From the sequence record OQ990039: DNA of 64,000 bases; one strand, written 5' to 3'. How positions within the stretch are numbered: the stretch's first letter is position 1; every line of letters begins with the position of its first letter. Below the pieces are notes generated by a model. The model had not been told where the DNA came from and made no database searches. It saw only the letters and a program-made list of their open reading frames with translations. The position numbers were made by a program, and so were the translations under genes. Shown in pieces: positions 29,678 to 47,152 of this stretch. Origin of the DNA: Escherichia phage SUT_E420.

Positions 29678-29685
29678 AAATTTAT

Positions 29686-29714
29686 TTGCATAGTGCAAAA
29701 AATTTCTGTATAAT
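29686..29714 (+). promoter_or_regulatory. T5 PN25-like early promoter (plus): -35 TTGCAT, 17-bp spacer, -10 TATAAT
   Basis: AAAAATTTATTTGCATAGTGCAAAAAATTTCTGTATAATAGATTCATAAATTTGAGAGAGGAGTTTAAATATG closely matches the classical T5 PN25 promoter and leader as recalled. Confidence 0.8.
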
Positions 29715-29745
29715 AGATTCATAAATTTGAGAGAGGAGTTTAAAT

Positions 29746-30450
29746 ATGGCTGGTTCTCGTAGAAAGAAACATATCCATGAAATCCCGGATGAAGTCTTTA
29801 AAAAGGTTATAGAGCATCTGGAGAACGGTGGTACCAAGAAAGCAGCATGTGAAATGCTCGGCGTATCATCCAATCCAACTATGGAAAGGATGATTGAAGA
29901 ATGGCAAGACCGCCAGATTCAAGTGGCTGAAATGAAGAAAAAGAAACGTGGCACACTCATTGAAGGCATTGAGTTAGCTAACGTTATTGAACAGTATTTG
30001 TCTGGTGATTCTTTTGAAGAAATTGCCGATCGTAATTACCGCTCTGTAGCAATGGTTAAATCTGTTCTGGAACGATATGGTGCTCTGCTTCGTTTGAATG
30101 ATATTGTAGATCCATTGAATCCTCCAATTATTCCTGATGATGCTGTAGCAGAAGAATTTGCAGTTGGTGAGCTTGTTTGGGTTCCTGGATACCAGTGTAT
30201 CGGTGAAATCAAAAAAGCAATGGATAACCCTGTTGGTTGTTACCGTGTATGGCTTCTATCAGAAGGCAAACAACAGAACGTTCATTATATGAATTACGAG
30301 CTGGCTTCTGTTAAACATCTGGAAAAGTTAGGGGTAGACGTAAAATCTCTAGGATATAAGTGGACTCGTGAAGAAATTATTACGTTGATTAACGAAGCTG
30401 TTAAGGCTGCCCTGAAACTTGATAAAGAAAAAGGAAAACGCCGTGAGTAA
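29746..30450 (+). CDS. early protein downstream of PN25, possible HTH DNA-binding protein (234 aa)
   Basis: N-terminus MAGSRRKKHIHEIPDE; helix-turn-helix-like KKAACEMLGVSSNPTMERMIEEW. Confidence 0.6.
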   Translation: MAGSRRKKHIHEIPDEVFKKVIEHLENGGTKKAACEMLGVSSNPTMERMIEEWQDRQIQVAEMKKKKRGTLIEGIELANVIEQYLSGDSFEEIADRNYRSVAMVKSVLERYGALLRLNDIVDPLNPPIIPDDAVAEEFAVGELVWVPGYQCIGEIKKAMDNPVGCYRVWLLSEGKQQNVHYMNYELASVKHLEKLGVDVKSLGYKWTREEIITLINEAVKAALKLDKEKGKRRE

Positions 30451-30694
30451 GCTAACAGATTTGCTTAAAGATGGGGAAGTAAAAACTCTATATCGTAGAA
30501 GCTGGGATAATGACAATAATGGCTTAGTGTTACTAACTTTAGACGCTGACTCAGATGTAGTTACCCAACATACCTGGGTAGCTGGTAATTATCCCTATAG
30601 TGAGGTTGTTACGTTAACAGTATGCGAAGCTATTGCTGACGATTGGGAGATTGCCAGCATTGATGATATGCTTGCTGTTGGCCTGGTGGAGTAA
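30419..30694 (+). CDS. hypothetical protein (91 aa)
   Basis: ORF overlapping the previous gene; an alternative GTG start at about 30446 is possible. Confidence 0.35.
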   Translation: MIKKKENAVSKLTDLLKDGEVKTLYRRSWDNDNNGLVLLTLDADSDVVTQHTWVAGNYPYSEVVTLTVCEAIADDWEIASIDDMLAVGLVE

Positions 30695-30711
30695 CTACAG
30701 AAAAATTTCAG

Positions 30712-30740
30712 TTGCTTAATCCTATAATTCTTGATATAAT
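30712..30740 (+). promoter_or_regulatory. sigma70-type early promoter (plus): -35 TTGCTT, 17-bp spacer, -10 TATAAT
   Basis: Consensus hexamers upstream of gene 30798. Confidence 0.65.
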
Positions 30741-30797
30741 ATTCTCATAGTTTGAAAGAACTATTCTGTTTAATTCTTAATTAAGGAAATATAAAAT

Positions 30798-31208
30798 ATG
30801 ACTACTCCAACTCAGTGGACTGATGAACTGTTCGAAAAAATGTCTTCCGAATACGTTGCTCGTATGGAGCAATTCCCAGAGGATGAACGTCCGGGTGTTA
30901 GCATGGAAATTGTTAGCGAAATTGCTCAGGAAAATGGTGTAACTCCGAACGGTTTTCGTATGAAGTTGACCAAAGCAGGTGTATATATCAAGAAAGCTGC
31001 TGGCTCTGCTTCTAAATCTAGTGCATCTACTGGAGAAAAAGCTTCTGGTGGTTCTCGCACTTCCAAAGCCCAAGCTCATGCCGATCTTCGTTCAGCATTC
31101 TCTGATGCTGGCCTAGCACCAGATTTTCTGGATGATGCAATTATCGACAAACTGACCGGTAAAGCGGCTGCTCATCTGGCAGAAGCAATCCGAGCTATCA
31201 CTAAGTAA
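30798..31208 (+). CDS. hypothetical protein with high-expression codon usage (136 aa)
   Basis: Strong bias to GCT/CGT/CTG/GGT codons; Ser/Ala-rich central linker. Confidence 0.5.
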   Translation: MTTPTQWTDELFEKMSSEYVARMEQFPEDERPGVSMEIVSEIAQENGVTPNGFRMKLTKAGVYIKKAAGSASKSSASTGEKASGGSRTSKAQAHADLRSAFSDAGLAPDFLDDAIIDKLTGKAAAHLAEAIRAITK

Positions 31209-31244
31209 TTTTTAGATAAATCCACCAACAAAAGGAACACAGTT

Positions 31245-31541
31245 ATGACCAAAGCTGAAATTATCGCACAATGTGAAAAATTTGGTGAGTTTTATCTTCA
31301 TTACGAGAAACTTCGTCAGAAAGGAACCACGTACCTTCAGGGTACGATGGAATTTGATCCAGCCCAAGATAAATATCTGGCTGAGCGTATTAAACGTGAA
31401 CGTATTCGTAAAGCGAAAGATGATGAGATCCTTGTCTTCTCTCGTACTAATGATAGCTTCCGTTTTATTCCTGTCGAGAAAGTCCGTCGTGTGACTAGCC
31501 TCCAATCAGAGTTAGATCGTGCTTCTCCAGTAGGCCGATAA
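31245..31541 (+). CDS. hypothetical protein (98 aa)
   Basis: ORF with ribosome-binding site AAAGGAA; followed by a terminator. Confidence 0.45.
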   Translation: MTKAEIIAQCEKFGEFYLHYEKLRQKGTTYLQGTMEFDPAQDKYLAERIKRERIRKAKDDEILVFSRTNDSFRFIPVEKVRRVTSLQSELDRASPVGR

Positions 31542-31550
31542 GAAACCAAT

Positions 31551-31575
31551 TAGCCCCTATATGGGGCTTTTTGTG
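31551..31575 (+). terminator. rho-independent terminator
   Basis: Stem AGCCCC/GGGGCT with loop TATAT followed by TTTTTG. Confidence 0.55.
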
Positions 31576-31591
31576 TATTTGGGATATGTAA

Positions 31592-31900
31592 ATGAGCGAA
31601 CAGGTAAATCAAAACTATGAAGGACACGTTGATGACCAGTCCATCATACTTTGGGAGAAGGAGGGGGAACAAGTAAGATTAACAGTATCTGAATTTCGTG
31701 GGAATCTATACATGGGTATTCGTTACTGGCTTCTTGATATTAATGATGAATGGTTTCCAACGAAATCTGGCTTCTCTTTTCCTTACACCCTAGAAACAAC
31801 ATCACAGCTTTTCTATGCGTTTACACAGATTCTTAGCGAATCTGAGGTTTTACATGAAGTACAGAAACGAGCTGAAGAACTCAAAGCCAAGAATGCCTAG
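31592..31900 (+). CDS. PC4-like ssDNA-binding protein (102 aa)
   Basis: VRLTVSEFRGNLYMGIRYWLLDINDEWFPTKSGFSF resembles the PC4/Sub1 C-terminal ssDNA-binding fold. Confidence 0.45.
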   Translation: MSEQVNQNYEGHVDDQSIILWEKEGEQVRLTVSEFRGNLYMGIRYWLLDINDEWFPTKSGFSFPYTLETTSQLFYAFTQILSESEVLHEVQKRAEELKAKNA

Positions 31901-31917
31901 TTCTTGGCTTTTTCTTT
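31884..31917 (+). terminator. rho-independent terminator (10-bp stem)
   Basis: AAGCCAAGAA/TTCTTGGCTT stem with 7-nt loop, followed by TTTCTTT; overlaps the stop codon of the PC4-like gene. Confidence 0.6.
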
Positions 31918-31927
31918 ATAAATGTAT

Positions 31928-31956
31928 TTGCTTTCAACTCAGTTTTGTTATATAAT
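31928..31956 (+). promoter_or_regulatory. sigma70-type early promoter (plus): -35 TTGCTT, 17-bp spacer, -10 TATAAT
   Basis: Followed by the family leader ATTTATATAAATTAATGAGAGGG. Confidence 0.7.
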
Positions 31957-31986
31957 ATTTATATAAATTAATGAGAGGGTTGCAAA

Positions 31987-32259
31987 GTGAAAAAGATAAG
32001 TATAAGTACACTTAAACCTTTCCCGTACATCGGACAGCCTCTTATACTTATGTGGGAGGGGAAGATTAATGGAGAAAAGTATACTAAAACTAGAAGTGGG
32101 TATAAGCTGATTTCACTTCATTACGAAAAAGAAGTATTAGTAGCTGAAATATACTCTCCGTTGTCAGATAGGCTAGTAAAAACTACATATTTGCATCTTT
32201 GCAAAAATTATACATGGCACGGATCCACTAGACAACCCACATACTATGAGGCAGAATAA
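31987..32259 (+). CDS. hypothetical protein (90 aa, GTG start)
   Basis: GTG start with ribosome-binding site GAGAGGG; directly upstream of the ligase N-terminal ORF. Confidence 0.4.
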   Translation: MKKISISTLKPFPYIGQPLILMWEGKINGEKYTKTRSGYKLISLHYEKEVLVAEIYSPLSDRLVKTTYLHLCKNYTWHGSTRQPTYYEAE

Positions 32260-33231
32260 ATGACCAATGTAAAAGACTTTATTAAACGTTGCCAAGAAGC
32301 ATATTATCAAGGTATGTCTTTAATCTCTGATGAAGAGTATGATTGCCTGGTAAAACGCTTTCCGTTAGAAGAAGAGATCGGACCTAAGGGCGATATTCCA
32401 CATCTGTATCGTATGTATTCTTTACAGAAAGTTTATTATAATCGTGGAGATAAACCTCCGTTTAACCCGTTAGGTCAAGTAGAAACTGATAAGTTAGATG
32501 GTTGTGCAATTTCTCTGTTATATATTAATGGCGAATTTGTTCAAGCACTAACTCGTGGTAATGGTATTCTAGGGAATGATGTCACAAGCAACGTAAGATT
32601 GCTGAATATCCCTAAAAAGATTTCCCAAAAAGTACCTACTCAAATCACTGGTGAAGTTCTAATTACAAAAGAAGTAGAAAATAAACGTAACTTTGCCTCT
32701 GGTGCTATTAACCTCAAAGATAGTGATGATTTTGTACAACGTATCGGAGAAGGTGGTTTAATCTTCGTTGCATATGGTATCCAGTGTTCTGCTGAATCTG
32801 TAGGTATTACAGAAGCATATTTAAAAGATATGCTTTGGCTGGAGAATGAGAACTTCTTAACAGTTGTTAATGTGCGTTCCTTCTTTAAATGGATTCCGAC
32901 GGATGGTAAAGTTGTTCGTATTAATGACAACAACAAATTCTTCCGTGAAGGCTGGACTAATAAATTCCCTCGTGGAGCATTCGCTATTAAAGAGGATGAA
33001 GAAGGCGAGGTTACAACTCTTACTAAAGTTGAATGGCAGGTAGGGGCTTCTGGTAAAGTAACTCCAGTTGGTTATTTCGAACCGGTAATTATTGATGATG
33101 CTACAATTGTTAAAGCGACTCTTAATAACGTTGATTATATTAACTCTCTTGATCTAGAGATCGGTTGCCAGATTCGAGTGATTCGTGCTGGTGGTGTAAT
33201 CCCGTGCATAGTAGAGCGAGTATACGAGTAA
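32260..33231 (+). CDS. NAD-dependent DNA ligase, N-terminal part (adenylation domain)
   Basis: 323 aa; nucleotidyltransferase motif I KLDG (VETDKLDGCAISLLY) and LigA-like Ia region. Confidence 0.7.
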   Translation: MTNVKDFIKRCQEAYYQGMSLISDEEYDCLVKRFPLEEEIGPKGDIPHLYRMYSLQKVYYNRGDKPPFNPLGQVETDKLDGCAISLLYINGEFVQALTRGNGILGNDVTSNVRLLNIPKKISQKVPTQITGEVLITKEVENKRNFASGAINLKDSDDFVQRIGEGGLIFVAYGIQCSAESVGITEAYLKDMLWLENENFLTVVNVRSFFKWIPTDGKVVRINDNNKFFREGWTNKFPRGAFAIKEDEEGEVTTLTKVEWQVGASGKVTPVGYFEPVIIDDATIVKATLNNVDYINSLDLEIGCQIRVIRAGGVIPCIVERVYE

Positions 33232-33282
33232 TACATAACCCTTTGCTACCCATCTACCATATCGGAATTATAAAGTGGTTAT

Positions 33283-33310
33283 TGACATTTTCGCCGCTTA
33301 GGTATATACT
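33283..33310 (+). promoter_or_regulatory. sigma70-type promoter (plus): -35 TTGACA, 16-bp spacer, -10 TATACT
   Basis: In the spacer between the ligase halves; shares TTGACATTTTCGC with the promoter at 4125. Confidence 0.5.
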
Positions 33311-33374
33311 AGTATCATTCAGTTGAGGGATAGAAAGTTATGGCGAGGGTAAGCAAAGTTAGTTAAAATTGTAG

Positions 33375-33403
33375 TTGCTAAATGCTTAAATACTTGCTAT
33401 AAT
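33375..33403 (+). promoter_or_regulatory. sigma70-type early promoter (plus): -35 TTGCTA, 17-bp spacer, -10 TATAAT
   Basis: Directly upstream of the ligase C-terminal ORF with the family leader. Confidence 0.7.
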
Positions 33404-33433
33404 ATTTATATAAATTGATAAGGAAGAAATTTG

Positions 33434-34204
33434 ATGAAAATCGAAATTCCAACACAATGTCCCTCTTGTGGTTCTAAGCTAGATCTTGTCAACGGACAAT
33501 TATTTTGTCGGAATAAGTCCAACTGTCCAGCGCAATCAAGTAAGTTAATTGAGAACTTCTGTACAAAAATGAAGTTAAAGGGTTTTGGTCCAAAAACTAT
33601 TGAGAAGCTGGAGCTGACGAAGATTTCAGAACTATTTTACCTAACCGAAGAAGATTTGGTTAGAGCCGTGGGTAGCAAGGTTGCCGCTAAGTTAATTAGC
33701 GAATTAAATACTAAAGTTCGCGGAGACATTGACTTTGGTTCAGTTCTCGGTTCTTTAGGAATCCCTCTAATTGGAGAGGTTGCAGCAAAGAAATTATCCC
33801 AAAATTGCACTAGCTTCCACGATGTGAAGGCTGACGGCAAGGCTGGAGAAAATTATAAAGCCTGGCTAAATTCCCCACAAGGCAAGGATGTTATCGAATT
33901 ACCGTGGAAATTCTCAACTGGTGCTAAAGCTAAAACCGTCGTTACTGATGATTTAGTTGCCCAGCCAAATGGAATCGCGGTATGTATTACCGGATCTTTG
34001 CAAGACTTTGCAAATCGAACGGATGCAACAAACTATTTAGAAGGTCTAGGATATACGGTTAAGAAATCTGTTACCAAAGACGTCAAATACCTAATCTGTG
34101 AGGATGAATCGAAGCGTTCTTCCTCATCTTATAAGAAAGCCGAAACGAATGGGATAGAAATCCTGTCGATTAAAGAACTATTGGAGAAAAATAATAATGT
34201 CTAA
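33434..34204 (+). CDS. NAD-dependent DNA ligase, C-terminal part (Zn finger, HhH, BRCT)
   Basis: Cys4 Zn finger (CPSCGSKLD...CRNKSNC), helix-hairpin-helix region, BRCT-like C-terminus (IAVCITGSL...YLICED). Confidence 0.7.
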   Translation: MKIEIPTQCPSCGSKLDLVNGQLFCRNKSNCPAQSSKLIENFCTKMKLKGFGPKTIEKLELTKISELFYLTEEDLVRAVGSKVAAKLISELNTKVRGDIDFGSVLGSLGIPLIGEVAAKKLSQNCTSFHDVKADGKAGENYKAWLNSPQGKDVIELPWKFSTGAKAKTVVTDDLVAQPNGIAVCITGSLQDFANRTDATNYLEGLGYTVKKSVTKDVKYLICEDESKRSSSSYKKAETNGIEILSIKELLEKNNNV

Positions 34205-34964
34205 ACTGAACTGGAACGTAGAAGGTGTAACCGAGTCTCTGAAAGCAAAAGCCACTGCTCTGGGTGTTTCTGTAATCTCTCAAGAACAAGTAGCCGCTAT
34301 CGCCGCTGAACTGGCTGCTGAAACTGGCAAAGATGTTACCGCTCGCTCTGTTGGCTCTAAACTGCGTAAAGAAGGTTTTGAAGTACAGAAAGCTAACGAA
34401 GTACAGAAATCCCCGTGGACTCCTGAGCAGGAAGCTGAACTGGTTGATTTCCTGAACGCTCATGCTGGTCAGTATACCTATGCTGAAATCGCTGCTGCTG
34501 TAGCTGGTGGTCAGTTCGGTGCTAAGCAGGTACAGGGTAAGATTCTGAGCCTGGAAATGACCGCTTCTGTTAAACCAACTGAAAAAGCTGCTGCTGTTCG
34601 TTCCTTTACTCCGGATGAAGAAACTGATTTTGTTAATCAGGTTGTTGCTGGTGCTACTATTGAAGCTATCGCTGCTCACTTCGGTCGCAATATTAAGCAG
34701 ATCCGTGGTAAAGCTCTGAGTCTGCTTCGTGAAGGTCGTATCGCTGCTATGCCGGTACAGGAAACCTCAAGTGCTAAAACTCGTGAAGATCTGTTAGAAG
34801 GTCTGGATCTGGTTAACATGACTGTTGCTGAGATCGCTGAGAAAACTGGTAAATCTGAGCGCGGTGTTAAATCTATGCTGTCTCGTCGTGGTCTGGTTGC
34901 TAAGGACTATGATGGTGCCGCTAAGCGTGCTAAACTGGATGCAAAAGCTGCGGCTGCTGAATAA
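34197..34964 (+). CDS. abundant-type protein with 3-4 tandem HTH-like repeats, putative DNA-binding protein (255 aa)
   Basis: Internal repeats (...ARSVGSKLRKEGF / ...AKQVQGKILSL / ...IKQIRGKALSLLREG / ...ERGVKSMLSRRGL); strong high-expression codon bias. Confidence 0.5.
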   Translation: MSKLNWNVEGVTESLKAKATALGVSVISQEQVAAIAAELAAETGKDVTARSVGSKLRKEGFEVQKANEVQKSPWTPEQEAELVDFLNAHAGQYTYAEIAAAVAGGQFGAKQVQGKILSLEMTASVKPTEKAAAVRSFTPDEETDFVNQVVAGATIEAIAAHFGRNIKQIRGKALSLLREGRIAAMPVQETSSAKTREDLLEGLDLVNMTVAEIAEKTGKSERGVKSMLSRRGLVAKDYDGAAKRAKLDAKAAAAE

Positions 34965-34981
34965 TCTGGTAAATTAAACCT

Positions 34982-35018
34982 AAGGGGAGGGGGCTATGCT
35001 CCTTCCCCTTTTTGCATT
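34982..35018 (+). terminator. rho-independent terminator
   Basis: Stem AAGGGGA/TCCCCTT followed by TTTGCATTT, immediately after gene 34197-34964. Confidence 0.5.
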
Positions 35019-35046
35019 TAGAAGGCACGAAAGCGTGCAAAGGAGA

Positions 35047-36519
35047 ATGACCTTGTTTAACGTGCAAGCTGTAGTGTTGAAGATGCTTCTAGCTTCCGAA
35101 CAGAAGCAAATAGCATTGGAAACATTCTCAAAACTGCATAAAGATCATTTTAATGACGCTTTCTCCTCAATTTACCAAGCCGTCCAGAATTATTATAAAA
35201 AATATAACACAATGCCGTCCATTGACGCACTTATGCTTGAAGCTAATAGGAACGCCCGCCTTTCTCAAGCCCTAGTCGTCTTAGCTAACACTCAAATTCC
35301 AGAAGTGAGCATGGAACAGGCACTTGAAGTCCTAGAGGCCGAGTATACACAGGATTTATTCCTGAAGCTTCTAGAAACAGACGTGCTTCAAGATTTAACA
35401 ATGCTGGATCAGGGAGAAATTCTCAACCGAGTTGCCTCCCTTCACTTAAAATTAGAAGAGAAAGTAACGAATACTGGAAAAGTATTCAACGCAGATAACA
35501 TGCGTATTTTCCAGAGAGAAGAAGATACCAAACTGAACTTAATCGCTCTTGGTATTTGTAATGAGTTCGATGCTCAAATTGGTTTAGCTCGCACAGAAAC
35601 GTTACTGCTTGGTGGTTGGCGTGGTACTGGTAAATCCATTATCTGTTCAAACATACAGGTTCAGCAATATTTGAATGGAGATATTGCTCCATACTTCTCA
35701 ATTGAGATGAAAGAACATGAAGTATTTAGACGTAATCTAGCCATGTTAGCCGGGGTATCAGCACTAGCAATGCGTAATAATACTCTAGAAGGTGCAGCTC
35801 TATTGAGATTAGCCAGAACTAGAGCTAGAATGTTCAACGGGGGTGAAGAGCTTTTCGATAACTTCGTTAAACAGTATACAATGGCTAAGATGAGTGATTT
35901 CTACGATATGGAGAGTAAGCTAATAGAGGGGTATGAACTACATACTCCTATGATTATCGTTTATGACCCTGAACTGTCCATTACAACAGTTGACGTAGAA
36001 TTAAATAAATTAGTTGCTAGATATGGTGATAAAGTTACAGTAGCTTTACTGGACTATATTAACCAAACCCGACTTCCAGATTCTAAAACCATTGATATGT
36101 ATGACTGGAAGGAACAGATGGTTGTTAGCTCGTCTTTCAAATCCATCTGCCAGAAACATAACGTGGCTGGCGTAGCTCCCTACCAGATCGATCAAGATGG
36201 TAGAACACGTATGTCAAAGGGGATTCTTGATTCCGCAGACATGGCTGCTAATCTTAATGCTGCTAAAGCTGATAATGGTCAAGGTGCTATTATGTTTGAC
36301 TTTGTTAAGACTCGTTCTTCTGATAGCGTGAAGTTTATGCCTAAAATGAATTGGGAAACTCTGCGAATGGATAATACTACCAACCTAGCAATGGAAGATA
36401 TATCTCAAATGGAAGCTGAGTTCGTTATCCCTATTGAGAAGGATAAGCCGGCTCAACCTAAACGTGCTAAGAAAGACAAAACTGAAAATTCAACAGGTGA
36501 ACAGGCCAGCGATATATGA
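35047..36519 (+). CDS. DnaB-like replicative helicase (about 490 aa)
   Basis: Walker A GGWRGTGKS, DnaB-type SIEM motif, Walker B-like MIIVYD; start set at ATG 35047 (ribosome-binding site AAAGGAGA); the track start 34996 lies inside the terminator hairpin. Confidence 0.6.
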   Translation: MTLFNVQAVVLKMLLASEQKQIALETFSKLHKDHFNDAFSSIYQAVQNYYKKYNTMPSIDALMLEANRNARLSQALVVLANTQIPEVSMEQALEVLEAEYTQDLFLKLLETDVLQDLTMLDQGEILNRVASLHLKLEEKVTNTGKVFNADNMRIFQREEDTKLNLIALGICNEFDAQIGLARTETLLLGGWRGTGKSIICSNIQVQQYLNGDIAPYFSIEMKEHEVFRRNLAMLAGVSALAMRNNTLEGAALLRLARTRARMFNGGEELFDNFVKQYTMAKMSDFYDMESKLIEGYELHTPMIIVYDPELSITTVDVELNKLVARYGDKVTVALLDYINQTRLPDSKTIDMYDWKEQMVVSSSFKSICQKHNVAGVAPYQIDQDGRTRMSKGILDSADMAANLNAAKADNGQGAIMFDFVKTRSSDSVKFMPKMNWETLRMDNTTNLAMEDISQMEAEFVIPIEKDKPAQPKRAKKDKTENSTGEQASDI

Positions 36520-37406
36520 GTAGAATAACAGAACTACTTGATCTGAAAGGCATTGAATATAAAGACACAGGTGGGGACATCCTCATCTGTTGTCTCAATC
36601 CAGATCATGACGATAAACACCCAAGTTTGCGTATTGATCCTGAAACAGGTATTATGCACTGCTTGAGTTGTGGCTTCGGTAAAGGTATACCGAGCATTTA
36701 CCATTATTTTAATGAGACTCAGTACCGACAGTCTCCAAGACTATCGCAGGTACGTAAAAAGATTTCAGAGATTAGGAATGGATCTACAAATCTTGCAATT
36801 CCTGAATCTGCTTACCTTTTCGAAGGTGATTTCCGAGGTATAAGTTCTAAGACCTTGAAGAAATACTTTGCTTTCCAACACCAAGCAGACTGGGAAGGCA
36901 GAATTGTATTCCCAATCACAGATGCTGTTGGACGCAATATCCTATTTTTGGGTCGTTCTATAAACAGTTCTGCCCCTCCTAAATACTTAGTAAAACCAAA
37001 ACAAGTTTCACCACCGATTTTCCCTGTACGATATAATACTCCAGTTCTTATTCTAGTTGAAGGTATCTTTGATATGCTGAACCTAGAGGATAATGGTATA
37101 GACTATGCTTCTTGCTGCTTTGGTACACATCAGTTTACTTCAGATAACATTGCAGATAAGTTTAGCCCTTATATTATTGCTGGTGTAAAAGTTGTTGTTA
37201 TCTTACTAGATAATGATGCTTCTGGTAATAAAGCTGCACAAGCGTTGGCCAAGCTAATTCGTACAAAAACGCGTTTAACACCTGTAGTGGCTAACTTTCT
37301 TCTACCCGAAGGTAAAGACCCTGGTGACTTAAATAAAGAAGAAATTGATATGTTAGCAAAACGTATTGAAATTTTAGTTGCTGAATCGCTTAAAGATTTG
37401 GTATAA
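36516..37406 (+). CDS. DNA primase (zinc-binding plus Toprim)
   Basis: Zn-binding CCLNPDHDDKHPSL...CLSCGFG followed by Toprim DxD (VVILLDNDASGNKAAQ). Confidence 0.7.
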   Translation: MSRITELLDLKGIEYKDTGGDILICCLNPDHDDKHPSLRIDPETGIMHCLSCGFGKGIPSIYHYFNETQYRQSPRLSQVRKKISEIRNGSTNLAIPESAYLFEGDFRGISSKTLKKYFAFQHQADWEGRIVFPITDAVGRNILFLGRSINSSAPPKYLVKPKQVSPPIFPVRYNTPVLILVEGIFDMLNLEDNGIDYASCCFGTHQFTSDNIADKFSPYIIAGVKVVVILLDNDASGNKAAQALAKLIRTKTRLTPVVANFLLPEGKDPGDLNKEEIDMLAKRIEILVAESLKDLV

Positions 37407-37468
37407 TATATTGGTAAGTTAGAGAAGAAACACTGAAGTTATACTTACTTACCAAGAGGAGATTAAAT

Positions 37469-39661
37469 TTGAAAATCGCAGTAGTTGATAAAGCTCTAAA
37501 TAACACTCGTTACGATAAACATTTCCAGCTATACGGCGAGGAAGTTGATGTATTTCATATGTGTAACGAGAAGTTATCTGGTCGTTTGCTTAAAAAGCAC
37601 ATTACTATTGGAACACCAGAAAATCCATTTGATCCGAATGATTACGATTTTGTTATACTAGTAGGTGCTGAACCTTTCCTGTATTTCGCAGGTAAGAAAG
37701 GCATTGGTGACTATACTGGTAAACGTGTAGAATATAATGGATATGCTAACTGGATTGCAAGTATCAGCCCAGCCCAGTTACACTTTAAGCCTGAAATGAA
37801 ACCAGTTTTCGATGCAACAGTAGAGAATATCCACGATATTATCAATGGTCGTGAAAAGATTGCAAAAGCTGGTGATTACCGTCCTATTACTGACCCTGAT
37901 GAGGCGGAAGAATATATCAAGATGGTGTATAATATGGTTATCGGACCTGTCGCATTCGACTCCGAAACCTCAGCACTATACTGTCGAGATGGTTATCTGC
38001 TTGGTGTTTCTATATCTCACCAAGAGTATCAGGGTGTATATATCGATTCTGATTGTCTCACAGAGGTTGCAGTATATTATCTCCAGAAAATTCTGGATAG
38101 TGAAAACCACACTATTGTTTTTCACAACTTGAAGTTTGATATGCACTTTTATAAGTACCATCTGGGACTTACTTTTGATAAAGCACATAAAGAACGCAGG
38201 CTCCATGATACAATGTTGCAGCATTATGTTCTAGATGAGCGTCGTGGTACTCATGGCTTGAAATCTCTAGCAATGAAGTATACCGATATGGGTGACTATG
38301 ACTTTGAACTAGATAAGTTCAAAGATGATTACTGCAAAGCACATAAAATCAAGAAAGAAGATTTCACCTATGATTTAATTCCGTTTGATATTATGTGGCC
38401 TTACGCTGCAAAAGATACCGATGCCACCATACGCTTGCACAACTTCTTCTTACCAAAAATTGAGAAGAATGAAAAACTTTGCAGTCTGTATTATGATGTT
38501 CTAATGCCTGGTTGTGTATTTCTCCAGCGTGTTGAGGATCGTGGTGTACCNNNNNNNNNNNNNNNNNNNNNNNNNNNNNNNNNNNNNNNNNNNNNNNNNN
38601 NNNNNNNNNNNNNNNNNNNNNNNNNNNNNNNNNNNNNNNNNNNNNNNNNNGGGTATCGTGTAATCGCATGGGACTTAACAACTGCGGAAGTTTATTATGC
38701 TGCTGTTCTATCTGGGGATAGAAATATGCAACAGGTATTTATCAATATGAGAAATGAACCTGATAAATACCCGGACTTCCACTCTAACATCGCACACATG
38801 GTATTTAAACTCCAATGCGAGCCTCGTGATGTTAAAAAGTTATTCCCAGCTCTGCGTCAGGCTGCTAAGGCAATTACCTTCGGTATTTTGTATGGTTCTG
38901 GCCCAGCTAAAGTAGCTCATTCTGTTAACGAAGCTCTTCTGGAACAGGCTGCTAAGACAGGAGAACCGTTTGTTGAATGTACTGTTGCGGATGCGAAGGA
39001 CTATATCGAAACTTACTTCGGTCAGTTCCCACAGCTTAAGCGTTGGATTGATAAGTGCCACGATCAGATTAAGAATCATGGATTTATCTATAGTCACTTT
39101 GGTCGTAAGCGTCGTCTGCACAATATCCACTCCGAAGACCGTGGTGTTCAGGGTGAAGAAATTCGTTCTGGATTTAACGCAATCATTCAGTCTGCTTCCT
39201 CTGATAGCCTCCTTTTAGGTGCTGTAGATGCAGATAATGAGATCATTTCTCTTGGCCTAGAACAAGAGATGAAGATTGTTATGCTGGTTCATGACTCCGT
39301 GGTTGCTATTGTTCGTGAGGATTTGATCGACCAATACAATGAAATCCTGATTCGTAATATTCAGAAAGACCGTGGTATCAGTATTCCTGGCTGTCCGATT
39401 GGTATTGATTCAGATTCTGAAGCTGGAGGTTCTCGTGACTATTCTTGTGGTAAGATGAAGAAACAGCACCCATCAATCGCTTGTATTGATGATGATGAAT
39501 ATACTCGTTATGTCAAGAGTGTATTACTTGATGCAGAGTTCGAGTATAAGAAACTAGCTGCAATGGATAAAGAGCATCCAGATCATAGCAAATACAAGGA
39601 TGATAAGTTTATTGCTGTATGTAAAGATTTGGATAACGTAAGAAGGATTCTCGGTGCTTGA
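37469..39661 (+). CDS. DNA polymerase, family A (internal assembly gap)
   Basis: TTG start; 3'-5' exonuclease motifs (FDSETSAL, YAAKDTD) before the gap; motif A-like WDLTTAEVYYAA, motif B RQAAKAITFGILYGSG and motif C LVHDS after it; palm/thumb region missing at 38551-38650. Confidence 0.85.
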   Translation: MKIAVVDKALNNTRYDKHFQLYGEEVDVFHMCNEKLSGRLLKKHITIGTPENPFDPNDYDFVILVGAEPFLYFAGKKGIGDYTGKRVEYNGYANWIASISPAQLHFKPEMKPVFDATVENIHDIINGREKIAKAGDYRPITDPDEAEEYIKMVYNMVIGPVAFDSETSALYCRDGYLLGVSISHQEYQGVYIDSDCLTEVAVYYLQKILDSENHTIVFHNLKFDMHFYKYHLGLTFDKAHKERRLHDTMLQHYVLDERRGTHGLKSLAMKYTDMGDYDFELDKFKDDYCKAHKIKKEDFTYDLIPFDIMWPYAAKDTDATIRLHNFFLPKIEKNEKLCSLYYDVLMPGCVFLQRVEDRGVXXXXXXXXXXXXXXXXXXXXXXXXXXXXXXXXXXGYRVIAWDLTTAEVYYAAVLSGDRNMQQVFINMRNEPDKYPDFHSNIAHMVFKLQCEPRDVKKLFPALRQAAKAITFGILYGSGPAKVAHSVNEALLEQAAKTGEPFVECTVADAKDYIETYFGQFPQLKRWIDKCHDQIKNHGFIYSHFGRKRRLHNIHSEDRGVQGEEIRSGFNAIIQSASSDSLLLGAVDADNEIISLGLEQEMKIVMLVHDSVVAIVREDLIDQYNEILIRNIQKDRGISIPGCPIGIDSDSEAGGSRDYSCGKMKKQHPSIACIDDDEYTRYVKSVLLDAEFEYKKLAAMDKEHPDHSKYKDDKFIAVCKDLDNVRRILGA
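38551..38650. other. assembly gap (100 N) without flanking duplication, inside the DNA polymerase gene
   Basis: Flanks differ; motif spacing implies roughly 150 missing residues. Confidence 0.8.
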
Positions 39662-40151
39662 TTTCAAATTGCCCGTCTATACGTTACGGGCGTTTGTATC
39701 AATTGAGCAAGAAGGTGATTATTCCGTAATTACAACAAGATATAATAAATATGTGCTAGATAACAGGAAGTTGCCTGGCACGTTTTCTCAACGTAGGCTC
39801 ATTCTATTTGAGAAACGGAAAGAATTACCGTACAAGCTCTATCCTATTAGAGGTAGAATATCAATGTTGTCCCAATTAGTTGGGTCAAAGCGTAGCCAAT
39901 TTATAGATTCTGATGGAAATCTTATTAATTGGAAGAAAACTACGTTCTATGATGTTGTTACCTCTAAAGTTTTGAATTCAGCTAGAATTTATAACGGAAA
40001 ATACCAATGCTATGTAGCTAAAGTTCCATACCCATTTGTATTATCCTATGTTCCAGCTTATATAAGCTATATTCTGGTAAATAATAGCCCTGTTATTTAT
40101 CAAGTCCATCAAGAGGAGCCTGAAATTCCTAGACTTAGAATAAAATTATGA
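39654..40151 (+). CDS. hypothetical protein (165 aa, GTG start)
   Basis: AT-rich ORF between polymerase and helicase genes. Confidence 0.4.
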   Translation: MLDFKLPVYTLRAFVSIEQEGDYSVITTRYNKYVLDNRKLPGTFSQRRLILFEKRKELPYKLYPIRGRISMLSQLVGSKRSQFIDSDGNLINWKKTTFYDVVTSKVLNSARIYNGKYQCYVAKVPYPFVLSYVPAYISYILVNNSPVIYQVHQEEPEIPRLRIKL

Positions 40152-41500
40152 AGGTTGTTATATCTAATAAAGCCTATTTCAAGCCCGATGATGAACTTTG
40201 GGATTATTGTAGTAAGCAAACCACTTATCACATAGAGACAATGACTAGTAAATACCCTATTATGTATAAGAATAGTGGTGTTGTTGCTAAAGAGATTAAG
40301 TGGATTCCTATCACGCGTCTGGATTTATTAGATGCTAAAGGAGTAAAATACGAATTAGTAGATAAACGTACATTAGCTCCGGTAGATATACCAAAACCTA
40401 AGTTCAAGCTGCGTGAAGAAGACCAGCTCCCAATATATGAAGAGTGCGATGATACCTGTATTATTAATGGTAAGCCTGGGTTTGGTAAAACTATCCTAGC
40501 CCTTGCACTTGCGTATAAATTTGGCCAGAAAACTTTGGTAATCTGTACGAATACATCCATTCGTGAAATGTGGGCAGCAGAAGTTCGTAAATGGTTTGGG
40601 TTTGAACCGGGCATTATAGGTTCTGGGAAATACAATATTGATCCACCAATTGTAGTCAGTAATATTCAAACAGTGAATAAACATGCGAATAATCTTTCTA
40701 AAGTATTCGGTACTGTTATAGTTGATGAAGTTCACCATTGTGTGGCTACAACTTTCACCAACTTCCTAGAAATATCATGTGCTCGCTATAAGATTGGACT
40801 ATCTGGAACATTAAAACGGAAAGATGGTCTACAAGTTATGTTCAAAGATTTCTTTGGATATAAGATCTTTAGCCCACCGGTTAATAATACTGTTGCACCT
40901 ACAATCCATAGGTACTCCGTGCCTGTTGAGTTATCAGGAAACCAAAACGTACCATGGGCATTACGTGCTAATGATGTGTATAACCATCCTGAATATCGAG
41001 AGACTATTATAAACTTAGCACACTTATACGTGAATATGGGGCATAAAGTACTCATTGTAAGTGACAGAACAGAGTTAATCCAAACAGTACTAGAAGCTCT
41101 CGCACAGCGTGGTGTTACAACATATGAAATTATAGGGGCAACCCACTTGGATGACCGATTAAAAATTCAGGAAAATATAGCAAAAGGTGGGCCTTGTGTA
41201 CTTGCAGCAGCTCAAAGTATCTTCTCTGAAGGTATTTCCCTTAATGAGCTATCTTGTTTAATAATGGGGAGTCTCATTAATAATGAATCTCTCATTGAAC
41301 AGCTTGCAGGACGTGTTCAACGTATTGTCGATGGTAAACTCGACCCTATTGTTGTAGATCTAATTATGAAAGGTGGCACTGGACTAAGACAGGCTTCTGG
41401 ACGTATGGCAGTATATCGTAACAACGGGTGGAAAACTATTACCATGACTCCTGAGAAAGCAGTTCAATTAGCTAAAATTGCATTTGGCAACAGCTCATAA
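40148..41500 (+). CDS. SF2 DEAH-box helicase (T5 D10-like)
   Basis: 450 aa; Walker A GKPGFGKT, DEAH box VIVDEVHH, C-terminal helicase motifs. Confidence 0.7.
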   Translation: MKVVISNKAYFKPDDELWDYCSKQTTYHIETMTSKYPIMYKNSGVVAKEIKWIPITRLDLLDAKGVKYELVDKRTLAPVDIPKPKFKLREEDQLPIYEECDDTCIINGKPGFGKTILALALAYKFGQKTLVICTNTSIREMWAAEVRKWFGFEPGIIGSGKYNIDPPIVVSNIQTVNKHANNLSKVFGTVIVDEVHHCVATTFTNFLEISCARYKIGLSGTLKRKDGLQVMFKDFFGYKIFSPPVNNTVAPTIHRYSVPVELSGNQNVPWALRANDVYNHPEYRETIINLAHLYVNMGHKVLIVSDRTELIQTVLEALAQRGVTTYEIIGATHLDDRLKIQENIAKGGPCVLAAAQSIFSEGISLNELSCLIMGSLINNESLIEQLAGRVQRIVDGKLDPIVVDLIMKGGTGLRQASGRMAVYRNNGWKTITMTPEKAVQLAKIAFGNSS

Positions 41501-41512
41501 ATGATGTATAAT
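41484..41512 (+). promoter_or_regulatory. sigma70-type early promoter (plus): -35 TTGGCA, 17-bp spacer, -10 TATAAT
   Basis: Overlaps the end of the helicase gene; followed by the family leader. Confidence 0.6.
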
Positions 41513-41583
41513 ATATACATAAATTTGAGAGAGAAAGTTTCGGATTGATAAGAAAGTCCGAAGCAGAAAAATAAAAATTTTAG

Positions 41584-41613
41584 TTGCTAAATTCTCTCGA
41601 AATCTAGTATAAT
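41584..41613 (+). promoter_or_regulatory. sigma70-type early promoter (plus): -35 TTGCTA, 18-bp spacer, -10 TATAAT
   Basis: Second tandem promoter about 100 bp downstream of 41484-41512. Confidence 0.6.
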
Positions 41614-41720
41614 ATATACATAAATTCGAGGAGAAAACAAAAATTAAATTCTTCGATTATGAAAAGCTATACTTACTAGCTAGAGGAAATTCCGACCTAA
41701 TTATCAAGCTATTCAAAAGA

Positions 41721-42005
41721 ATGCTTACAGAGCCTGATGCTCATCAATTATTGGTCGGTTCCTCATTCATTTTGAATGAATCAACAATAGTTGATAATCC
41801 AAATAAATTGTCTAATAGACAACTGGCAGAATATCTAGGAATTTTAAGTCTACGAAATTATGCCGAATACAAGTTTACAAACGATCCTAGTTTGGACATA
41901 CAATATGTTCCAGTATGGATACCACGTTTAGTAATCGACACTAACCCACTAATCGCAATTAACAAATCGAAATTAATCTTTAAAGAGGAAATAAAATATG
42001 GCTAA
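41721..42005 (+). CDS. hypothetical protein (94 aa)
   Basis: ORF in track; no motif. Confidence 0.35.
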   Translation: MLTEPDAHQLLVGSSFILNESTIVDNPNKLSNRQLAEYLGILSLRNYAEYKFTNDPSLDIQYVPVWIPRLVIDTNPLIAINKSKLIFKEEIKYG

Positions 42006-42771
42006 GTCTTGGGGCGAAACTACTGGCGGTTCTAACGATAAAATCGAATTCCTGAAGTTCAACAACGGTATCACTCGTGTTCGTATCGTTTCTGGTGTTC
42101 TTCCACGTTATGTCTATTGGCTGACTAATAAAGAGGGTAACGTAGCTCCTTTCGAATGTCTCCGTTTTAACCGTGACAAAGAGAGCTTTGTTCGTGGTAA
42201 AGCTGATCCGGTTCATGAGATGGGCTTCTTCGAGAAAGAGCTGGATAAAGATGGTAATCGTGTTCCGCTGAAACCGAAGAAAAACTATATCGCTTTTGTT
42301 ATCGACCGTTCTGATAACAAACTGAAAGTAATGGAAGTCAAGGCTACTATTCTGAAAGGCATCCAGTCTATCATGAAGCAGCTGAGCCTGGCAACTCCGT
42401 TTGATATTGATATTTCTATCGAGAAAAAAGGTAAAGGTTTCGATACTGAGTATGATGTACAGCAGATTGCTGCTATGCAGTTCCAGATTAAGCTGCAAGA
42501 TCCTAACAGTGCAGAATCTAAGCAATATGCTGCAGATGTAGATCTGATCGGTGAAGCTATGTGTGATGAAGATGGCGACATCATTAAGTTCGAAAAAGTT
42601 CCTTCTCTGGAACAAACCTATCCGGTTCCTACCTATGAAGAGCAGAAAGAAGCAATTCTAGCCTTCATGGAAGGTCGTGAGAATAAAGATGATGATGCCA
42701 AATCTGGTAATAGCAATGCAGGCTCCCAGAAAGGTATTGACACAGAAGCTGCAAGCGATCTGGATGACTAA
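41998..42771 (+). CDS. highly expressed early protein (T5 D11-position), function unknown (257 aa)
   Basis: Ribosome-binding site AAAGAGGAAA, strong high-expression codon bias, acidic C-terminal tail (EAASDLDD); followed by a terminator. Confidence 0.5.
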   Translation: MAKSWGETTGGSNDKIEFLKFNNGITRVRIVSGVLPRYVYWLTNKEGNVAPFECLRFNRDKESFVRGKADPVHEMGFFEKELDKDGNRVPLKPKKNYIAFVIDRSDNKLKVMEVKATILKGIQSIMKQLSLATPFDIDISIEKKGKGFDTEYDVQQIAAMQFQIKLQDPNSAESKQYAADVDLIGEAMCDEDGDIIKFEKVPSLEQTYPVPTYEEQKEAILAFMEGRENKDDDAKSGNSNAGSQKGIDTEAASDLDD

Positions 42772-42796
42772 TAAATAGAGGGGCTTCGGCCCCTTT

Positions 42797-42896
42797 NNNN
42801 NNNNNNNNNNNNNNNNNNNNNNNNNNNNNNNNNNNNNNNNNNNNNNNNNNNNNNNNNNNNNNNNNNNNNNNNNNNNNNNNNNNNNNNNNNNNNNNN
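42797..42896. other. assembly gap (100 N) flanked by identical 77-bp copies
   Basis: 42720-42796 is identical to 42897-42973. Confidence 0.85.
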
Positions 42897-42984: not shown

Positions 42985-44139
42985 ATGAGAATATTATTTA
43001 GTGCTGATCATCATATCAAACTAGGACAAGATAAAGTTCCAAAGGAATGGCAGAAGCGTCGCTTCCTGATGCTAGGAGAACGGTTAAATGATATATTCCA
43101 TAATCATAACTGTGATCTTCATATTGCTGGTGGTGATATACTTGATGTTGCCGACCCGTCGTCAGAAGAAATAGAACTGCTTGAACAGTTCATGTCAAGA
43201 CTTGACCATCCAGGCAAAATCTTTACTGGAAATCATGAAATGTTAACGAAAACCATTTCATGTCTATATCATTATGCAGGAGTTATTAATAAAGTAACGA
43301 GTGGTAAGTGGGAAGTAATTACCAAACCATATCGTTCCCCTGAATTTGATATTGTTCCATATGACGAAATCCATAAATCTAAGTGGAAACCATCTGAATC
43401 AAAACTATGTTTCACGCATGTTCGTGGTGAAATCCCTCCACATGTAAAACCAGANNNNNNNNNNNNNNNNNNNNNNNNNNNNNNNNNNNNNNNNNNNNNN
43501 NNNNNNNNNNNNNNNNNNNNNNNNNNNNNNNNNNNNNNNNNNNNNNNNNNNNNNTCTAAGTGGAAACCATCTGAATCAAAACTATGTTTCACGCATGTTC
43601 GTGGTGAAATCCCTCCACATGTAAAACCAGAAATTGATCTAACTAAGTACAACTGTTATGATACTGTAATTGCTGGCGATTTACATTCTTATACTAATAG
43701 CCAGACTATCGGATCTACTAGACTCCTCTACCCAGGGTCTCCATTAACTACATCGTTCCATAGAGAACGCACAAAAGGTACAAATGGTTGCTTTATCGTT
43801 GATACCGACACATTAAAAGTAGAATGGATTGAACTCGGTGATTTACCACAACTGATTCGTAAAACAATCGGAGCTGGTGAAGAGATGGAACCTAGTGATT
43901 ATGATCGTGTAGTCTATGAAGTTACTGGTGACGTTGTTCAATTAAAGTCTATCAAAGACTCTGATTTATTAGATAAGAAGATTAACCATCGAGTTACTAA
44001 AGACGCTAAGTTAAATCTTGTTGATCTTGATATGTTAGGCGAACTTGAACTTTACTTCCGTGAAGTTGAGAAGCTATCTCAAGGCGACATTGATAGAATC
44101 TTGGCTAGAGCTGCGAAATATGTCAAAGATTACAATTAA
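42985..44139 (+). CDS. SbcD/Mre11-like nuclease (T5 D12-like)
   Basis: Calcineurin-like phosphoesterase motifs (ILFSADHH, GGDILD, FTGNHE); ORF contains the duplication artefact at 43455-43554. Confidence 0.75.
   Translation: MRILFSADHHIKLGQDKVPKEWQKRRFLMLGERLNDIFHNHNCDLHIAGGDILDVADPSSEEIELLEQFMSRLDHPGKIFTGNHEMLTKTISCLYHYAGVINKVTSGKWEVITKPYRSPEFDIVPYDEIHKSKWKPSESKLCFTHVRGEIPPHVKPXXXXXXXXXXXXXXXXXXXXXXXXXXXXXXXXXXSKWKPSESKLCFTHVRGEIPPHVKPEIDLTKYNCYDTVIAGDLHSYTNSQTIGSTRLLYPGSPLTTSFHRERTKGTNGCFIVDTDTLKVEWIELGDLPQLIRKTIGAGEEMEPSDYDRVVYEVTGDVVQLKSIKDSDLLDKKINHRVTKDAKLNLVDLDMLGELELYFREVEKLSQGDIDRILARAAKYVKDYN
43455..43554. other. assembly gap (100 N) flanked by identical 77-bp copies
   Basis: 43378-43454 is identical to 43555-43631. 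Confidence 0.85.
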
Positions 44140-46489
44140 GACACTAAAATTTAGTAACGTTATGTCTTACGGTAAGGACATCGTAATTCATNNNNNNNNN
44201 NNNNNNNNNNNNNNNNNNNNNNNNNNNNNNNNNNNNNNNNNNNNNNNNNNNNNNNNNNNNNNNNNNNNNNNNNNNNNNNNNNNNNNNNNNNGAAATATGT
44301 CAAAGATTACAATTAAGACACTAAAATTTAGTAACGTTATGTCTTACGGTAAGGACATCGTAATTCATCTCGATAAGAATCCCGTTACTCAACTAATCGG
44401 GGGCAATGGGCTAGGGAAATCTACAATTGCTACTGTTATTGAAGAACTATTCTATAATAAGAACTCACGCGGTATTAAGAAAGATGCTCTGTTCTCTTGG
44501 TCTTCTCCGAAAAAAGAATACGATATGCACGCTTATTTCTCGAAAGATGAGGATGAGTATGAACTGCATAAAGTAGTTAAGTCAACTGCTAAAGTAACTC
44601 TTATTAAGAATGGGGAAGATATTAGTGGACACACGGCAACCCAAACATACAAGATGATTGAAGAAATTATGGGTGGTGACTTCCAAACATTCACCAAACT
44701 GATTTATCAATCGGTGGGCTCCAATCTAGACTTTCTAAAAGCAACGGATGCAACACGTAAGGCTTTTCTTGTTAACTTGTTCAATCAAGAACAGTATAAA
44801 GAAATGTCAGAAACTATTAAGGCNNNNNNNNNNNNNNNNNNNNNNNNNNNNNNNNNNNNNNNNNNNNNNNNNNNNNNNNNNNNNNNNNNNNNNNNNNNNN
44901 NNNNNNNNNNNNNNNNNNNNNNNGATGCAACACGTAAGGCTTTTCTTGTTAACTTGTTCAATCAAGAACAGTATAAAGAAATGTCAGAAACTATTAAGGC
45001 TGACCGTAAAGAAATAGCAAATACCTTAAACAATTTGCAAGGCCAAATGGCTGTAATTACGAAAATCCTTAATGGAAAGAATAATCTAGGAACTCTACAG
45101 GAACCTGTAGAAGTACCGGAGTTTGATGAAGAACCATTAGCACAAGAACTTACTGAATCGAAAATTAAGGCGGCATTAGCCAAGTCTCAAGAGGCTAATA
45201 TTACTAAATTGCGTAATTTGGACAAAGCTGTACAAGTTGCCGAACAATCTTTCGAACCTTTCAAAAATTTACCCGCGCCCACCGACCAAAACGAAGAGAT
45301 CTCAAGTGTTACGCGTGACCTAACGATTGTGACCTCACGTGCTGGTGAAGTTAAGAAACGTTATCAGAAGTTCAAGCAAGAGGCTTCAAATACTGAATGT
45401 CCTACTTGTGGTACTCATCTGGATACAACTGCCGCTCAAAAAGCAATGGATATGGCTAGAACAGAATATGATCCTCTGTTCAAAGAGAAGCAATCTCTTG
45501 AAGCTAAGCTAGAACAGTTGAGGAAAGAACAACTTGAGTACGTTGCGTATATTAGAGCAAAGGATGCCTTGGATAAAGCAGTGGTAGCTAGGGACGAGTT
45601 CAAAAATTCAATGAGTGATGCTTCTTTTGAAGAACTCAATGTGCAAATCCTACAGGTGCAAATCCGACAATTAGAACAGGAAATCGCTGATGGNNNNNNN
45701 NNNNNNNNNNNNNNNNNNNNNNNNNNNNNNNNNNNNNNNNNNNNNNNNNNNNNNNNNNNNNNNNNNNNNNNNNNNNNNNNNNNNNNNNNNNNNGATGCTT
45801 CTTTTGAAGAACTCAATGTGCAAATCCTACAGGTGCAAATCCGACAATTAGAACAGGAAATCGCTGATGGACGTTCTAAGGTTGCAATTGCCAAAGAGCA
45901 TAATGCAAATGTCGAATTAGCCAATGCAAAATATAAAGCGAAACTAGAACAGATTGAGAAAGCTGAAGCAGAAATGTCCGAGATTACTTCCAAATTAAAT
46001 GAAGTATCAGAAGCTGTTGCTGATCTCGATATTCTGATTGCTGCATTGAAGAATTTAGTAGGATATAAACTAGAGCATAGTGTGAAAGTATTTGAAGAAC
46101 TAATTAATAAATACCTTTCTATTATGACTGGCGGTAAATTCGCACTTGGATTTGAACTTGATGAAACAAAATTACAAGTAGTAATCTTCAATGATGGAAA
46201 TCGTACCAGTATGGAGAACTGCTCTACTGGTCAACAGAGTCGAATTAACCTAGCAACCCTGTTAGCTATTCGGATGCTGTTAACATCTATTAGTAAAGTT
46301 AATATTAATCTTCTATTCCTTGATGAAGTAATTAGCTTTATTGATACGAAAGGACTTGACACTCTTGTTGAATTATTAAACGAGGAAGAAAGTCTAAATT
46401 CTATCATTGTTTCTCATGGGCATACGCATCCACTAGCTCATAAGATTACTGTCAAAAAAGATGCAGAAGGATTTTCCTACTTAGAATAA
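44119..46489 (+). CDS. SbcC/Rad50-like ATPase (T5 D13-like)
   Basis: Start at MSKITIKTLKF; Walker A GGNGLGKST, long central coiled coil, C-terminal signature/Walker B region (LLFLDEV); three duplication artefacts inflate the track ORF by about 177 aa. Confidence 0.7.
44192..44291. other. assembly gap (100 N) flanked by identical 77-bp copies
   Basis: 44115-44191 is identical to 44292-44368. Confidence 0.85.
44824..44923. other. assembly gap (100 N) flanked by identical 77-bp copies
   Basis: 44747-44823 is identical to 44924-45000. Confidence 0.85.
45694..45793. other. assembly gap (100 N) flanked by identical 77-bp copies
   Basis: 45617-45693 is identical to 45794-45870. Confidence 0.85.
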
Positions 46490-46492
46490 AAC

Positions 46493-47152
46493 ATGGCTGT
46501 AGATAGTAGAGAGAAAGGTAAACGTGGTGAATATCAGGTAAGAGATATTCTACGTGAGCGTACAGGTCTTGAGTGGGAACGTGTTCCTGGCTCTGGTGCT
46601 TTTGGCCAGAGCCACGGACTGAAAGGTGACATCTACCTTCCACCACAAAGCGGACACATTAGTAAATACTGCTTCGAAGTTAAGTGGTANNNNNNNNNNN
46701 NNNNNNNNNNNNNNNNNNNNNNNNNNNNNNNNNNNNNNNNNNNNNNNNNNNNNNNNNNNNNNNNNNNNNNNNNNNNNNNNNNNNNNNNNCACGGACTGAA
46801 AGGTGACATCTACCTTCCACCACAAAGCGGACACATTAGTAAATACTGCTTCGAAGTTAAGTGGTATAAAGATGATAATATATCAAGTAATTTATTTAAT
46901 GTTGGTGAATCCACTCTAGAGAAGTGGTGGCAGCAGTGCTCACGTGAAGGTGAGCAGATGAACTCCAAACCTGCATTAATATTCAAAAAAGACAGAGGAC
47001 AGTGGTTAATAGCTTTGGATAGCTCAGACCCAATGGTTGACAACTTAATGAGTCGTACCCATATGGTGTTAAATAAGAAAGACATGGAAATCGTAATTGG
47101 TTTATTTGAACCGTGGCTACATCATGCATCTGTTGAGGACTTAATTAAATAA
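46493..47152 (+). CDS. PD-(D/E)xK-type nuclease-like protein (T5 D14-like)
   Basis: GDIY...FEVKW resembles a PD-(D/E)xK core; contains one duplication artefact (true length about 160 aa). Confidence 0.45.
   Translation: MAVDSREKGKRGEYQVRDILRERTGLEWERVPGSGAFGQSHGLKGDIYLPPQSGHISKYCFEVKWXXXXXXXXXXXXXXXXXXXXXXXXXXXXXXXXXXHGLKGDIYLPPQSGHISKYCFEVKWYKDDNISSNLFNVGESTLEKWWQQCSREGEQMNSKPALIFKKDRGQWLIALDSSDPMVDNLMSRTHMVLNKKDMEIVIGLFEPWLHHASVEDLIK
46690..46789. other. assembly gap (100 N) flanked by identical 77-bp copies
   Basis: 46613-46689 is identical to 46790-46866. Confidence 0.85.

Follow-up and report, generated by a model that had tools for sequence, protein, structure and literature searches.

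One stretch of the genome of Escherichia phage SUT_E420 (sequence record OQ990039) raises the question of whether this phage encodes an unusually short replicative DNA polymerase, or whether part of an ordinary polymerase gene is hidden by the way the sequence was assembled. In the 64,000 nucleotides that we analyzed, referred to here as the window, the DNA polymerase gene as assembled lies at 37469..39661 on the + strand, and in the list of open reading frames (ORFs) it has a TTG start and 730 codons, 34 of which read as X. The window sequence at 38551-38650 consists of exactly 100 N, and this run splits the gene in two. The N-terminal fragment (37469..38550, +) carries, in the numbering of the full-length protein described below, residues 1-360 and the first two bases of Pro361, and it covers an N-terminal extension and the 3′-5′ exonuclease domain. 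The C-terminal fragment (38651..39661, +) carries residues 520-855 and the stop codon, and it covers motifs A, B and C and a C-terminal extension.

The window holds 12 N-runs, each of exactly 100 N. Comparison of their flanks found an exact 77-nt duplication across the gap at 10 of the 12 (5911-6010, 27525-27624, 42797-42896, 43455-43554, 44192-44291, 44824-44923, 45694-45793, 46690-46789, 47262-47361 and 54082-54181). When the 13 window contigs were mapped onto the complete genome of T5_ev212, the contigs at these ten duplicated-flank joins overlapped by exactly 77 nt on that reference too, so nothing is missing there and the ten runs are spurious. Each of these joins is 177 nt too long, being made up of the 77-nt duplication plus 100 N, which adds 59 in-frame codons to the gene that is hit. 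The largest default k of SPAdes for 150-bp reads is 77, and it is for this reason that overlaps of just this length were left at the ten joins. Seven of the ten spurious runs fall within 42.8-47.4 kb, over D11, SbcD, SbcC, D14 and D15, where the contigs are 472-896 nt long; contigs this short point to a branched assembly graph.

The two remaining runs, 29064-29163 and 38551-38650, are the only ones among the 12 that hide real sequence. The flanks of each have no common 14-mer, and at 38551-38650 there is no suffix/prefix overlap (0 nt), and the 400-nt flanks have no exact run in common that is longer than 9 nt. On T5_ev212, contigs 27625-29063 and 29164-38550 lie 652 nt apart, and contigs 29164-38550 and 38651-42796 lie 475 nt apart. 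As is characteristic of a placeholder, the same 100 N stands at all 12 joins, although the real spacing is -77 nt at ten of them and 652 nt and 475 nt at the other two, and the flanks of the polymerase gap are collinear with complete relatives that have real sequence between them. This bears out the preliminary description of the locus, which had called 38551-38650 a true gap with flanks that are not duplicated: the overlap is 0, and in relatives that match at 100% the flanks stand 475 nt apart.

If the assembly is instead read literally, the polymerase would be truly shortened by a genuine internal deletion, and the N-run would correspond to a real interval of about 100 bp. All that speaks for this is the literal reading itself, with its in-frame ORF of 730 codons. 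Against it stand the use of 100 N at all 12 joins, ten of them with a true distance of -77 nt, and the propagation of the matching SUT phages as lytic isolates (PMC10668671). With the further evidence given below, we grant such an enzyme almost no credence.

The size of the hidden segment can be read from the relatives of this phage. The 3.5 kb around the gap match 462 phage records, nearly all of them Tequintavirus (T5-like), and identity around the gap reaches 100% in Escherichia phages SUT_E1520, SUT_E520, T5_ev212 and EC148. T5_ev212 and SUT_E1520 contain exact copies of the 60-nt gap flanks at a distance of 475 nt, and these 475 nt, present in LR597659.1 at 71825-72299, are identical in the two genomes. 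A 675-nt probe, consisting of the 475 nt with 100 nt on either side, matched 439 records at a coverage of at least 80%; in 58 of 58 full-length rows sampled from these 439 records it aligned in a single piece, at identities from 100% down to 89%, and T5 (NC_005859.1 72079-72753) was among these rows. Within the 58-row sample the span was 675 nt in 55 rows, 674 nt in one, and 670-673 nt in three, whose query starts are correspondingly shorter. The earlier estimate of about 150 missing residues, or roughly 450 bp, was therefore close to the 158 aa and 475 nt that the relatives give.

Over the 3.5-kb query, phages slur09, FGS029 and PMBT29 are ~387 bp longer, and an insertion inside pol was considered for these three. 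It was rejected: pol is still 2568 nt in these phages, and the extra ~387 bp consists of a 109-aa ORF that separates primase from pol. Since this DNA lies outside pol, it is irrelevant to the gap.

A second draft reaches directly into the missing segment. Most window contigs are present exactly in the record of SUT_E520 (OQ990040.1, ‘partial genome’), and the remaining ones span N-runs of that record, with contig ends that map collinearly, so the window represents a further draft of this phage or of one almost identical to it; SUT_E420 (OQ990039) has been described as nearly identical to SUT_E520 (PMC10668671). SUT_E520 has a 100-N gap in pol too, with its right-hand edge at exactly the window's base, and its left contig is 244 nt longer than that of the window, such that 231 nt are hidden there. 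Between the flanks SUT_E520 has 244 real nt and then 100 N, and the 244 are the first 244 of the reference 475. Neither draft (the window or SUT_E520) has the final 231 nt of the segment, which are attested in the relatives only. Elsewhere the gaps of SUT_E520 differ in position from those of the window, several of which are closed in SUT_E520. The preliminary description had allowed for exactly 100 bp of real sequence at this place, and this is contradicted by OQ990040.1 running 244 real bases into the gap, which also argues against a shortened polymerase.

In SUT_E520 (OQ990040.1), the 311-aa C-terminal piece at 2471-3406 is alone annotated as ‘DNA polymerase’, and the N-terminal 1.3 kb is unannotated. 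The SUT_E520 record is a ‘partial genome’ with at least 15 N-runs; the paper calls these genomes ‘complete’ (PMC10668671).

The matching phages, SUT_E520 included, were sequenced with 150-bp paired reads and assembled with SPAdes 3.15.3, and their contigs were joined manually in SnapGene (PMC10668671). Joining by hand (PMC10668671) leaves room for a mis-join, in which two contigs that are not genomic neighbours, and with them the two halves of the gene, would have been united by reference-guided ordering. We regard this as extraordinarily improbable here: all relatives examined show the two contigs in collinear arrangement, the contigs hold the two halves of a single gene at 100% identity and in a conserved gene order, and the sequence of SUT_E520 runs on past the end of the left contig into the segment that is missing.

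With the size of the segment in hand, the gene itself can be reconstructed. Both fragments are 100% identical in DNA sequence to T5_ev212, and the true gene is 2568 nt long and encodes 855 aa, with the same start and stop as the annotated DNA polymerase CDS in T5_ev212, SUT_E1520, slur09 and T5. The left contig stops two bases into codon 361 (CCN) and the right contig opens at base 1 of codon 520; codon 361 is Pro because CCN encodes Pro whatever its third base. The gap hides one base and 158 codons, residues 362-519, meaning that the 100-N run at 38551..38650, to which no strand applies, is a placeholder for 475 nt comprising the last base of codon 361 and codons 362-519. Inserting the 475 nt in silico gives an uninterrupted 855-aa ORF with no internal stop. 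The length of 730 aa had already been called wrong in the preliminary description, and the relatives' CDS together with the in-silico repair set the true length at 855 aa. That description had also attributed the shared frame of the two fragments to coincidence only, which proves to be the case: 475 mod 3 and 100 mod 3 are both 1, and the fragments stay in frame because both lengths leave this same remainder on division by 3.

The reconstructed protein is nearly that of T5. The reference (or repaired) protein differs from T5 polymerase (pol, T5.122, YP_006950.1; 855 aa) at 5 of 855 residues, an identity of 99.4%, and the inferred missing block differs at 2 of 158 residues (V392K and K396Q). 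The T5 gene is likewise 2568 nt and shares its TTG start position and its neighbours with the window's gene, with the order primase, pol, 165-aa ORF and D10 helicase conserved in the window, its relatives and T5. By its near-identity to T5, its 2568-nt length and its gene order, the gene is a Tequintavirus pol orthologue. There is no demonstrable biological difference between the T5 polymerase and the window gene; what sets the latter apart is that codons 362-519 are replaced by Ns. The T5 record describes a core replisome polymerase with 3′-5′ exonuclease and strand displacement from nicks (YP_006950.1), and the enzyme is highly processive and has a UDG-like N-terminal extension (PMC3201878). 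Its processive and strand-displacing activity, a biochemical property, has been tied to its unique N- and C-terminal extensions (T5 record, PMC3201878).

Each fragment was compared with the conserved motifs of family A polymerases. The window's own N-terminal fragment contains the three motifs of a family A exonuclease: Exo I (DxE) as FDSET at 37955-37969 (+, residues 163-167), Exo II (NxxxFD) as HNLKFD at 38123-38140 (+, residues 219-224) and Exo III (YxxxD) as YAAKD at 38402-38416 (+, residues 312-316). The C-terminal fragment keeps motif A (Dx[ST]xxE) as DLTTAE at 38672-38689 (+, residues 527-532), motif B (RxxxKxxxxxxxYG) of the fingers as RQAAKAITFGILYG at 38855-38896 (+, residues 588-601), and motif C (HD) as VHDS at 39287-39298 (+, residues 732-735). 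Three more elements, also encoded on the + strand, are hidden by the gap: LLEIRKLTKLISTY at residues 452-465, SGRLSS at residues 490-495 and NLQQLP at residues 500-505. The spacings of about 45 residues from Exo III to the end of the first fragment and about 8 residues before motif A, both noted previously from the letters, agree with the reconstructed numbering, in which P361 is 45 residues after D316 and the C-terminal fragment begins at G520, 7 residues before D527.

Profile searches draw the same boundary. Pfam PF01612 (DNA_pol_A_exo1) is found in the N-terminal fragment over residues 137-331 (E=1.6e-40). Pfam PF00476 (DNA_pol_A) is found in the C-terminal fragment over profile positions 154-361 of 381 only (E=5.2e-34), and on the full protein over positions 6-361 (E=6e-66), so that the window lacks positions 6-153 of the DNA_pol_A profile, or 39% of the model. 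A complete polymerase domain, one that includes the thumb and N-terminal palm motifs LLEYR..KL.STY and TGRLSS..PNLQNIP, is lacking in the gene as assembled and present after insertion of the 475 nt from the identical-flank relatives. The missing thumb and N-terminal palm are an assembly artefact and no property of the gene. A genuine deletion would have to strip away the same 39% of the DNA_pol_A profile, which speaks further against a shortened enzyme, and the block lost in such a deletion includes the thumb and the motif equivalent to that of Klenow R668.

The Klenow fragment of E. coli DNA polymerase I (PDB 1dpi, 1kfd, 1d9d and others) offers a structural framework for the hidden block, as it is a family A enzyme with a 3′-5′ exonuclease followed by a polymerase domain, like the T5 enzyme. 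Klenow aligns over T5 residues 158-749 (E=8e-50), and its Exo motifs, motif A Asp, motif B and motif C His-Asp align with the T5-type protein: the T5-type DLTTAE, RQAAKAITFGILYG and VHDS align to Klenow DYSQIE, RRSAKAINFGLIYG and VHDE, and in GRLSS, T5 R492 is paired with residue 345 of the Klenow chain (Pol I R668). Beyond the aligned region the T5 polymerase extends by a further ~130-150 aa at its N-terminus and ~100 aa at its C-terminus, and it also differs from Klenow by small insertions within the thumb and the fingers. The T5 polymerase is replicative, processive and strand-displacing, whereas Pol I is a repair polymerase (T5 record, PMC3201878).

In this alignment the hidden block, residues 362-519, corresponds to Klenow / Pol I ~547-697, with P361 at ~546 and G520 at ~698 of Pol I. 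In Klenow, Pol I ~547-697 is the thumb (helices H-I) together with the first palm elements contacting the primer terminus, and R668 lies in the GRLSS motif. The thumb grips the primer-template duplex, and a mutant deleted for the thumb tip (Klenow 590-613) is said to have been described by Minnick et al. in 1996. Judged by the Klenow alignment and these subdomain positions, the hidden block corresponds to the thumb and the N-terminal palm elements. The preliminary description, which had the palm/thumb region removed, was thus correct for the thumb and the first palm elements (LLEIRKLTKLISTY, SGRLSS and NLQQLP) and too broad for the rest of the palm, as the catalytic palm motifs A and C are still in the window.

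Two other parts of the window depart from T5_ev212. The segment ~17741-29063 is only ~96.6% identical to T5_ev212, compared with at least 99.86% for the rest of the window, and looks from its sequence like a mosaic segment from another Tequintavirus lineage. The gap at 29064-29163 hides 652 nt of a replication-origin-binding/helicase gene, which are present in OQ990040.1 at 57391-58042; it too is in frame by coincidence (652 mod 3 = 1). Identity to T5_ev212 is ~96.6% on its left and ~99.9% on its right, and this switch would therefore place a mosaic or recombination boundary inside that gap. At 17207-17689 (-), between two aerobic ribonucleotide reductase subunit genes, the window has ~530 nt versus 34 nt at the same position of T5_ev212. 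The product of this segment, 160 aa long, has an HNH_3 endonuclease domain (PF13392, E=1.6e-8) and is probably a free-standing homing endonuclease; such elements commonly vary among T5-like phages.

Variation of this kind bears on a third alternative, in which the polymerase gap hides non-reference content and its true length is not 475 nt. Candidates are an inserted homing endonuclease, intron or intein and a divergent mosaic allele of the thumb, possibly in a mixed population, and the break would then be biological. Mosaicism and free-standing HNH endonucleases are features of T5-like genomes, as the ~530-nt HNH_3 insertion relative to T5_ev212 illustrates, and the other true gap coincides with the switch from ~96.6% to ~99.9% identity. 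Furthermore, two different drafts have an identical right edge of the polymerase gap, and the k-mer overlaps at ten contig ends are a sign of a branching graph. On the other side, the first 244 nt of the gap are in SUT_E520 and are reference-identical, and none of the 58 full-length rows sampled from the 439 records has an insertion in the interval. The extra 387 bp of slur09, FGS029 and PMBT29 sits between primase and pol, outside pol. In addition, identity to T5_ev212 is 99.86% or higher on both sides of the polymerase gap, and a mosaic switch of the sort seen at 29064-29163 is absent here. Weighing these points, we consider non-reference content in the gap unlikely, a long shot at best. The same low probability attaches to a biological break arising from a stock that mixes two thumb alleles or contains a mobile-element sub-population, in which the identical right edge would mark a polymorphism or recombination boundary in pol.

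The reading we prefer is that the N-run is very probably a fixed-length placeholder between adjacent contigs, hiding 475 bp of an ordinary 855-aa T5-type pol. A fragmented short-read assembly would have been stitched together, with 100 N set between two adjacent SPAdes contigs. The 100 N would replace 475 bp of pol that are almost certainly identical or near-identical to the T5_ev212/SUT_E1520 sequence. The real gene would encode a standard 855-aa T5-type family-A replicative DNA polymerase, with the predicted domain order N-terminal extension, 3′-5′ proofreading exonuclease, thumb, palm, fingers and C-terminal extension. This reading builds on the observed position of the gap, the collinearity of the contigs, the 475-nt size in identical-flank relatives, the invariance of that size across the genus and the restoration of the ORF; going by its relatives, this isolate would carry those same 475 nt.

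As for why the assembly broke here, we infer a local failure of coverage or of graph resolution. The hidden 475 nt gave no sequence cause for dropout: their GC content is 40.2% versus 39.9% for the gene, all homopolymers are shorter than 6, and none of their 16-mers occurs anywhere else in the window. The right edge of the gap is identical in the window and in SUT_E520, which hints at a systematic rather than a random cause and suggests a graph branch, reads shared between drafts or population heterogeneity as candidates. Site-specific nicks in T5 DNA were also considered as a cause of coverage loss and tentatively set aside: there is no GCGC in the 675-nt interval, and a nick would not remove 475 bp. 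The gap site is at ~59% of the T5 map, and the major T5 nicks presumably lie at other positions.

The consequences for anyone using this assembly are purely practical, as the polymerase gene model, its length, its domain annotation and any phylogeny or structure prediction made from it are all wrong. Since the placeholder happens to preserve the frame, any gene caller reading through Ns yields a plausible-looking 730-aa protein, in which there is no thumb and the exonuclease domain is fused to motif A. The problem extends through the window, for -77, 475, 652 and 100 all equal remainder 1 mod 3, so none of the 12 joins shifts the frame and the errors are silent. An enzyme truly without the thumb and first palm elements would be unable to replicate the phage. 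The 730-aa polymerase is an assembly artefact and involves no new biology—the underlying gene is the long-known T5 DNA polymerase.
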